DNA of 64,000 nt from Escherichia coli (GTDB taxonomy: Bacteria; Pseudomonadota; Gammaproteobacteria; Enterobacterales; Enterobacteriaceae). The stretch lies in assembly GCF_017348835.2 (NCBI RefSeq), contig NZ_CP071375.1, one strand, 5' to 3'. Positions 36,925 through 38,939 of this stretch are shown one piece after another. Positions within the stretch are counted from its first letter, which is position 1; each line of letters starts with the position of its first letter. The notes beneath the pieces were generated by a model. That model was not told the origin of the DNA. It worked only from the letters and a program-made list of their open reading frames with translations, and did no database searches. The position numbers and the translations under genes were made by a program.

Positions 36925-38939
36925 TTGATGGCTATGTCAGACGAGGCGATGTTTGCCCCGCCGCAAGGAATAACAATTGAAGCGGTAAACGGAATGCTCG
37001 CGGAGCGGTTAGCACAGAAACACAGCAAGGCGTCTTTATTACGCGCCTTCATCCCGCTGCCGCCGCCGTTCAGCCCGGTACAACTTATTGAGCTGCATGT
37101 TCTCAAAAGCAACTTCTATTACCGCTACCATGATGATGGCAGCGATGTGACGGCAACAACAGAGTATCAGGGCGAGATGGTCGATGATTCGCGCCACGCC
37201 GTCCTTCTCGGCAGTAGTGGAATGGCGGAGCTACGCTTTATTCGTACCCACGGCAGCCGTTTTACTCCCCAGGATTGCACACTGTTTAACTGGCTGGCGC
37301 GGATAATCACCCCGGTTCTGCAATCATGGCTCAATGATGAAGAACAGCAGGTGGCGCTGCGTTTGCTGGAGAAAGATCGCGATCATCATCGGGTACTGGT
37401 TGATATTACTAATGCAGTGCTGTCACATCTTGATCTCGACGATCTGATCGCTGACGTCGCCCGTGAGATCCATCATTTTTTCGGTCTGGCTTCAGTCAGT
37501 ATGGTACTGGGAGATCATCGAAAGAACGATAAGTTCAGCCTGTGGTGCAGCGATCTTTCTGCCTCACATTGTGCGTGTCTGCCACGCAATATGCCTGGCG
37601 ACAGTGTATTGCTGACACAAACGCTACAAACCCGACAACCGACCTTGACGCACCGTGCAGACGATCTGTTTCTCTGGCAACGCGACCCGTTATTACACTT
37701 ACTTGCATCTAACGGCTGCGAATCTGCGCTCCTGATACCGCTTACCTTTGGCAACCATACACCGGGTGCATTGTTGCTGGCGCATACCTCTTCCACTCTC
37801 TTTAGTGAGGAAAACTGCCAGCTACTACAACACATAGCCGATCGCATCGCTATTGCCGTTGGCAATGCCGATGCCTGGCGTAGCATGACCGATTTGCAGG
37901 AAAGTTTGCAGCAAGAAAACCACCAGCTTAGCGAGCAGCTCCTTTCGAATCTGGGCGTCGGTGACATTATCTATCAAAGCCAGGCAATGGAAGACCTGCT
38001 CCAGCAGGTAGATATTGTGGCGAAGAGCGACAGTACGGTGTTGATTTGTGGTGAAACCGGAACCGGCAAAGAGGTGATCGCCAGAGCGATCCATCAACTT
38101 AGCCCGCGACGCGACAAGCCGCTGGTCAAAATCAACTGCGCTGCCATCCCCGCCAGTCTTCTGGAAAGTGAGTTATTCGGTCATGACAAAGGGGCGTTTA
38201 CTGGTGCGATTAATACCCATCGTGGTCGTTTTGAAATTGCCGATGGCGGCACGTTGTTTCTCGATGAAATTGGCGATCTGCCGTTAGAACTTCAGCCTAA
38301 ATTGCTGCGCGTATTGCAGGAGCGGGAAATTGAGCGTCTCGGCGGGAGTAGAACGATCCCGGTGAATGTCAGAGTCATTGCCGCCACCAACCGTGATTTG
38401 TGGCAAATGGTTGAAGATCGCCAGTTTCGCAGCGATCTCTTTTATCGCCTGAATGTCTTCCCACTGGAATTGCCGCCGCTACGCGACCGTCCGGAAGATA
38501 TCCCTCTTTTAGCAAAACATTTCACGCAAAAAATGGCGCGCCATATGAATCGCGCAATTGACGCCATCCCGACCGAGGCACTACGCCAGTTGATGTCGTG
38601 GGATTGGCCGGGCAACGTGCGCGAGCTGGAAAACGTGATTGAGCGGGCGGTACTGTTGACTCGTGGTAACAGTCTGAATTTACATCTAAATGTCCGACAA
38701 AGCCGTTTACTGCCGACGCTAAATGAAGATTCAGCGCTTCGCAGTTCAATGGCGCAGTTGCTGCACCCGACGACGCCAGAGAATGACGAAGAAGAACGTC
38801 AGCGCATTGTTCAGGTATTGCGAGAAACCAATGGCATTGTTGCGGGCCCCGTGGCGCGGCGACACGATTAGGGATGAAGCGCACCACGCTGCTGTCACGA
38901 ATGCAGCGTCTGGGGATCTCGGTTCGCGAGGTGTTGTAA
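36925..38939 (+). pseudogene. hyfR: Sigma-54-dependent activator HyfR, disrupted by a -1 frameshift near the 3' end (C-terminal HTH out of frame)
   Basis: ORF 36925..38871 carries GAF and AAA+ sigma-54 activator domains (GETGTGKE, GAFTGA) but ends ...IVAGPVARRHD*; the expected Fis-type HTH (LGMKRTTLLSRMQRLGISVREVL*) is encoded in the +1 frame at 38868-38939. Shift site is the gggcccc run at about 38845-38851. Confidence 0.75.

Follow-up and report, generated by a model that had tools for sequence, protein, structure and literature searches.

A one-base deletion in hyfR of a pig-associated Escherichia coli clone places the helix-turn-helix of the hydrogenase-4 activator out of frame

The window, which is the whole stretch of 64,000 nucleotides analysed here, carries a complete hyf operon in which the activator gene hyfR has lost a single nucleotide. 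The deletion truncates HyfR ahead of both helices of its C-terminal helix-turn-helix. The allele is very probably a recent, vertically inherited loss of hyfR function in one pig-associated E. coli clone.

The deletion in hyfR and the domains kept and lost

The frameshifted hyfR pseudogene (36928..38939, + strand) is flanked by hyfJ and focB and comprises 2012 nt, in comparison to 2013 nt in the wild type. The encoded open reading frame (36928..38871, +) starts with the ATG at 36928, ends with ...ETNGIVAGPVARRHD and is terminated by a premature TAG at 38869..38871 (+), 68 nt ahead of the normal stop. The product of 647 aa consists of HyfR residues 1-641 followed by VARRHD, residue 642 being the first that is changed. 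The adjacent frame (38850..38939, +) translates to RGAATRLGMKRTTLLSRMQRLGISVREVL and a stop. It represents HyfR residues 642-670 with both helices of the Fis-type helix-turn-helix (HTH), and no further mutation is found in this remnant. An earlier sequence-only reading had described both the stop at 38869-38871 and the shift of a Fis-type HTH into the next frame, and the translations agree with it on either point. In the original frame an ATG is located 2 nt past the premature TAG (38874-38939, +), which could reinitiate translation of the 21-aa peptide MKRTTLLSRMQRLGISVREVL, an orphaned recognition helix that is probably meaningless.

Alignments with E. coli HS, K-12 MG1655, PE164, F2_81 and two read-run assemblies indicate that exactly one base is missing at hyfR. 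The wild-type site reads GTTGCCGGGCCCCGT and the window GTTG-CGGGCCCCGT; in codons, GTT GCC GGG CCC CGT of the wild type is replaced by GTT GCG GGC CCC GTG. The base that is missing is a C from the CC doublet in the Ala639 codon GCC, between 38843 and 38844 (38843..38844, +), where the wild-type GCC GGG (Ala639-Gly640) has become GCG GG. No alternative placement of the gap in the alignments yields the sequence of the window, and neither the G3 nor the C4 run at 38844-38850 differs in length from the wild type. The sequence-only reading had placed one missing base in the gggcccc run near 38845-38851 and proposed an alignment to K-12 hyfR as a check. That alignment does show a single-base gap, but the site is the CC doublet at 38843/38844; since GCG GGC CCC still spells A-G-P, the lesion had been set too far downstream by a few bases. 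Within 38835-38855 of the window the deletion allele reads GTTGCGGGCCCC and the intact allele GTTGCCGGGCCCC. Insertion of a C after 38843 gives a protein of 670 aa, in which six residues differ from HyfR of strain HS.

In the HyfR protein repaired in this way Pfam identifies a GAF domain (residues 169-311, E 5.6e-13), Sigma54_activat (residues 347-513, E 8e-75), AAA_lid_14 (residues 519-585, E 6e-23) and, as a weak match, HTH_8 (residues 621-661, i-E 8.6e-4). The HTH_8 domain is found only once the missing C is restored. The truncated product of 647 aa keeps the GAF domain, the Sigma54_activat AAA+ domain with the motifs GETGTGKE and GAFTGA, and the AAA lid. The first helix of HTH_8 (residues 621-641) also stays in this product, and the HTH helices AATRLGM and KRTTLLSRMQRLG are both absent from it. 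The FhlA profile of NCBIfam aligns to the intact HyfR over positions 136-690 of 692 with 641.5 bits and to the truncated form over 136-664 with 590.8 bits, which is a loss of 51 bits and of the 26 last positions. Alignments, Pfam and the FhlA profile are thus in accordance with the claim that a -1 frameshift truncates HyfR and leaves the HTH out of frame. When the last 65 residues were searched against PDB sequences, no more than a marginal match to the HTH of FleQ was obtained (E 0.09), which is illustrative only.

HyfR of K-12 (b2491), the sigma-54-dependent activator of hyf, is encoded at the same locus between hyfJ and focB, and its GAF, AAA+ and HTH architecture is shared by HyfR of the window after the one-base repair. 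In K-12 and HS the DNA of the region is 98.8% identical to the window. The hyfR gene of the window differs from that of K-12 in its length (2012 versus 2013 nt), and its product ends after residue 641 with six foreign residues and without an HTH. It is assigned as a HyfR orthologue due to its position in the hyf operon, its identity and its AAA+ and GAF domains; the HTH is the one expected feature that is missing. Among the NCBIfam models the highest score for HyfR is that of FhlA, the activator of formate hydrogenlyase. The domain order of FhlA is the same, and the two proteins have -24/-12 target promoters of the same kind (PMC7658346). Both forms of HyfR score below the equivalog cut-off of the FhlA profile (830 bits), and HyfR is therefore a paralogue and not FhlA itself.

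Distribution and age of the allele

The segment hyfR-focB is present in about 4,296 of 5,426 complete E. coli genomes, and approximately 21% are without the locus. Only two of the about 4,296 genomes with the locus contain the deletion, which are PE164 (pig isolate, Nanjing, China) and F2_81 (from a pig rectal swab, Australia); both match the window without a gap. The other genomes with the locus (about 4,294) have a single in-frame hyfR including the extra C. In RefSeq/PGAP hyfR is labelled as a 'frameshifted' pseudogene in PE164 (LZG51_RS06205) as well as in F2_81 (CPH39_RS06415). The hyfR genes of these two strains have the same haplotype as the window, with 100% identity across 501 nt around the deletion. 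No complete genome in the collection matches the window exactly. Over 64 kb, 6 substitutions separate PE164 from the window, and F2_81 differs from it by at least 9 substitutions and an IS3 rearrangement. These substitutions together with the differing IS3 and pdeF structures therefore identify the window strain, PE164 and F2_81 as three distinct strains which share the deletion. The MLST genes are located outside the window, and a literature search on strain F2_81 returned only irrelevant matches to a residue 'F281'.

The exact product of 647 aa is encoded on at least 24 contigs, corresponding to 28 index blocks. The two loci shown for it are Logan assemblies of ERR3970200 and SRR21743672, both with the deletion, and in the cluster table this product is assigned to 19 contigs (NCBI, ENA, Logan).

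A sequencing or assembly error, with a true hyfR of 2013 nt from which the C was dropped in base-calling or polishing, can practically be discounted. Single-base indels are a common artefact in G+C-rich runs and the deletion site adjoins GGGCCCC; however, the lost base belongs to the CC doublet, with both the G3 and the C4 run unaltered. A homopolymer error is unlikely because the lost C sits in a doublet of 2 nt and not in a homopolymer run. The deletion is moreover shared by two complete genomes that come from separate laboratories and continents, by the window and by at least 24 other contigs, and it is confined to one haplotype whose near-identical relatives keep the C. It thus tracks one haplotype across laboratories and platforms, which argues for inheritance and not for random error. 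The homopolymer sequencing error that the sequence-only reading had left as an option is rejected on account of the CC doublet and of the same allele in independently sequenced strains. As judged from the sequences, the frameshift appears to be a genuine mutation.

The repaired protein of 670 aa is itself an existing allele, found on 58 contigs in the cluster table and in 121 index blocks. Four loci with the intact allele were retrieved, and in three of them (L013, L015 and L016) the DNA of hyfR is the same as in the window except for one C. These three relatives show 2-8 mismatches to the window over 8 kb, and among the complete genomes the next in similarity reach 99.2% identity over 24 kb. 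Since the hyfR genes of the relatives are identical but for the C, the lesion has to be young. The comparison points to a single recent event in a narrow clone, which would have occurred before the window strain, PE164 and F2_81 diverged.

Several other loci vary within this clone. The pdeF gene (yfgF) of the window is intact (51722-53965, - strand; 747 aa). PE164 has the nonsense mutation W353* in this gene, and in F2_81 an IS3-family element interrupts it; these are two independent inactivations of a c-di-GMP phosphodiesterase gene in a narrow clone. An IS3-family transposase is encoded at 54602-55815 of the window, and the region 56046-64000 contains trbL, trbJ, traJ, a RepA-like helicase, an HTH regulator, a LuxR-family regulator and a tyrosine integrase. 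In the window and in PE164, yfgG is followed by this mobile block with its conjugative-transfer genes, replication helicase and integrase. F2_81 has yfgH and yfgI after yfgG at the corresponding position, so that the clone is variable for the insertion. At 35577-35578 in hyfH an adjacent double change (CC in the window, AA in PE164) was noticed, for which the window agrees with F2_81; further differences between the window and PE164 are located at 46003, 52606, 52908 and 55698. Outside the window, the region 1005001-1055000 of PE164 shows decay by the type I-E CRISPR-Cas locus, where a copy of IS3 lies directly beside cas3, casB is truncated and most cas genes between casA and cas2 are missing. 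The yqcE gene of PE164 is frameshifted as well. These observations suggest IS3 activity and an accumulation of pseudogenes in the clone.

The hyf operon and the likely consequence of the truncation

The ten structural and accessory genes of hydrogenase 4, hyfABCDEFGHIJ (26181..36898, +), are all in frame without an internal stop in the window, and hyfA-J are annotated as intact in PE164 and F2_81. The gene order hyfA-J, hyfR, focB is common to the window, K-12, HS, PE164 and F2_81. The last gene of the operon, focB (38961..39809, +), is intact and now starts 89 nt past the upstream stop, formerly 21 nt. A mild polar effect on focB via this enlarged untranslated gap is conceivable.

A sigma-54 type -24/-12 element, TGGCATCCTTTATGCA, is located at 26124..26139 (+), 42 nt upstream of hyfA, where it had been noticed before, and is identical to that of K-12 MG1655. 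A scan of the window for the sigma-54 pattern revealed 8 matches with one mismatch where 7.7 are expected, which is no excess over chance for the bare pattern. The element (GG-N10-GC) is a predicted promoter, identified because of its position and its identity to K-12. The bcp-hyfA intergenic region (25929-26180) contains 11 substitutions in comparison to K-12, all of them outside the -24/-12 core. One of these falls in the palindrome TGATCAAGATCA, for which the window has TGACCAAGATCA (around 25986-25997), and another one directly 5' of TGGCA. The inverted repeat CGACA-CGGG-TGTCG at 26015-26028 is the same as in K-12.

In enhancer-binding proteins the C-terminal HTH binds to upstream activating sequences, and DNA looping brings the activator to the promoter-bound sigma-54 holoenzyme (PMC3844500). 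In the proposed sequence of events one C of the Ala639 codon is deleted, and the frame would shift after residue 641 into VARRHD and the stop. Without the HTH, HyfR would no longer find the enhancer that precedes the hyf promoter, so that HyfR-specific activation of hyfABCDEFGHIJR-focB as well as autoregulation would be lost or strongly reduced. The remaining transcription of hyf from the intact -24/-12 promoter would then depend on the paralogue FhlA. We infer that this is the most likely outcome, i.e. enhancer-directed activation by HyfR is lost and hyf is left to FhlA. Chromosomal hyfR reportedly contributes little unless it is overexpressed, a result attributed to Skibinski 2002 and Self 2004.

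Cross-activation of hyf by FhlA is a plausible candidate route. The fhlA gene is annotated as intact in PE164, together with hyp and hyc, where it adjoins hypE and mutS. Transcription of both hyf and hyc is activated by FhlA and dependent on RpoN (PMC7658346). The native expression of E. coli hyf is described as poor (PMC7384014), and no Hyd-4 activity resulted from E. coli hyf even under the Phyc or T5 promoters (PMC7654741). Pectobacterium has a functional FHL-2, the activity of which is almost abolished when hyfR is deleted (PMC7384014). The fitness effect of the lesion in E. coli is probably small and near neutral, because hyf is poorly expressed in this species and missing from about 21% of the complete genomes.

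The deletion allele may not necessarily be null, since truncated enhancer-binding proteins retain activation from solution, although less effectively (PMC3844500). Nevertheless, it is unlikely that the allele keeps activity, be it by -1 slippage on G_GGC_CCC or by an HTH-less GAF-AAA+ protein acting in solution or in mixed oligomers with FhlA. For the protein itself two modes can be envisaged, a promiscuous or partly functional activation from solution and a dominant negative effect on FhlA/HyfR oligomers, and taken together they are improbable. The GAF domain and the complete AAA+ domain with GAFTGA are kept, and bacterial enhancer-binding proteins without a DNA-binding domain activate E-sigma54 from solution at about 10-fold below the full-length cognate at glnK (PMC3844500). 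Such activation, however, generally requires overproduction. The operon, towards the end of which hyfR is located, is poorly expressed (PMC7384014), and without autoregulation expression would drop further. The regulatory GAF domain is retained, hence the protein is not expected to be constitutive. The rarity of the allele (two of about 4,296 genomes; 28 index blocks, as opposed to 121 with the intact sister allele) does not point to selection for it. The DctD250 AAA+ fragment and similar proteins resemble HyfR of the window in keeping the AAA+ sigma-54 module and lacking the C-terminal HTH. These are, however, overexpressed constitutive fragments or evolved natural forms, whereas HyfR of the window keeps its sensor GAF domain and was truncated by a recent chance event, its gene being weakly expressed.

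The allele might also be leaky, if ribosomes slipped by -1 on G_GGC_CCC (38844-38850) often enough to provide wild-type HyfR (…AGP joined to RGAAT…) for function; this is very unlikely. The heptamer GGGCCCC (38844..38850, +) in the zero frame of the mutant has the form X_XXY_YYZ, and a -1 slip on G GGC CCC restores CGT GGC GCG…, which is the wild-type sequence. In E. coli, frameshifting exceeds the background for most heptamers, and the tetramer C_CC.C slips moderately well if a pseudoknot accompanies it (PMC4066793). In the same study, however, G_GG.C_CC.N lies outside the efficient E. coli motifs, G_GG.C_CC.A remains sub-threshold even with the IS3 pseudoknot, and values without a stimulator are about 0.1-0.5% (PMC4066793). 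No stimulatory RNA structure was seen in the fold of 38851-38940, where the 90 nt past the heptamer do not fold more stably than shuffled sequences (-29 kcal/mol versus a shuffle mean of -29.9, z = 0.28). In that frame the heptamer is a by-product of the mutation and missing from all in-frame orthologues, therefore nothing has selected for it. A programmed -1 frameshift was rejected as well; the site is not conserved, a stimulatory structure is lacking and the motif belongs to a weak class.

Meaning for the hyf locus

The hyfR lesion is an ordinary clone-specific pseudogene that had already been flagged in public annotation. For annotation this means that hyfR is here best called a pseudogene and not corrected as an error. 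The allele is a marker for a small E. coli clone associated with pigs and known from China and Australia. It adds one more case to the decay of the hyf locus, which in K-12 gives no detectable hydrogenase-4 activity. If the HTH-less protein were active, formate-responsive sigma-54 transcription would be rewired in this clone. As a natural and minimally perturbed hyfR(ΔHTH) allele, it could be used to test what HyfR contributes to hyf beyond FhlA in a wild isolate.
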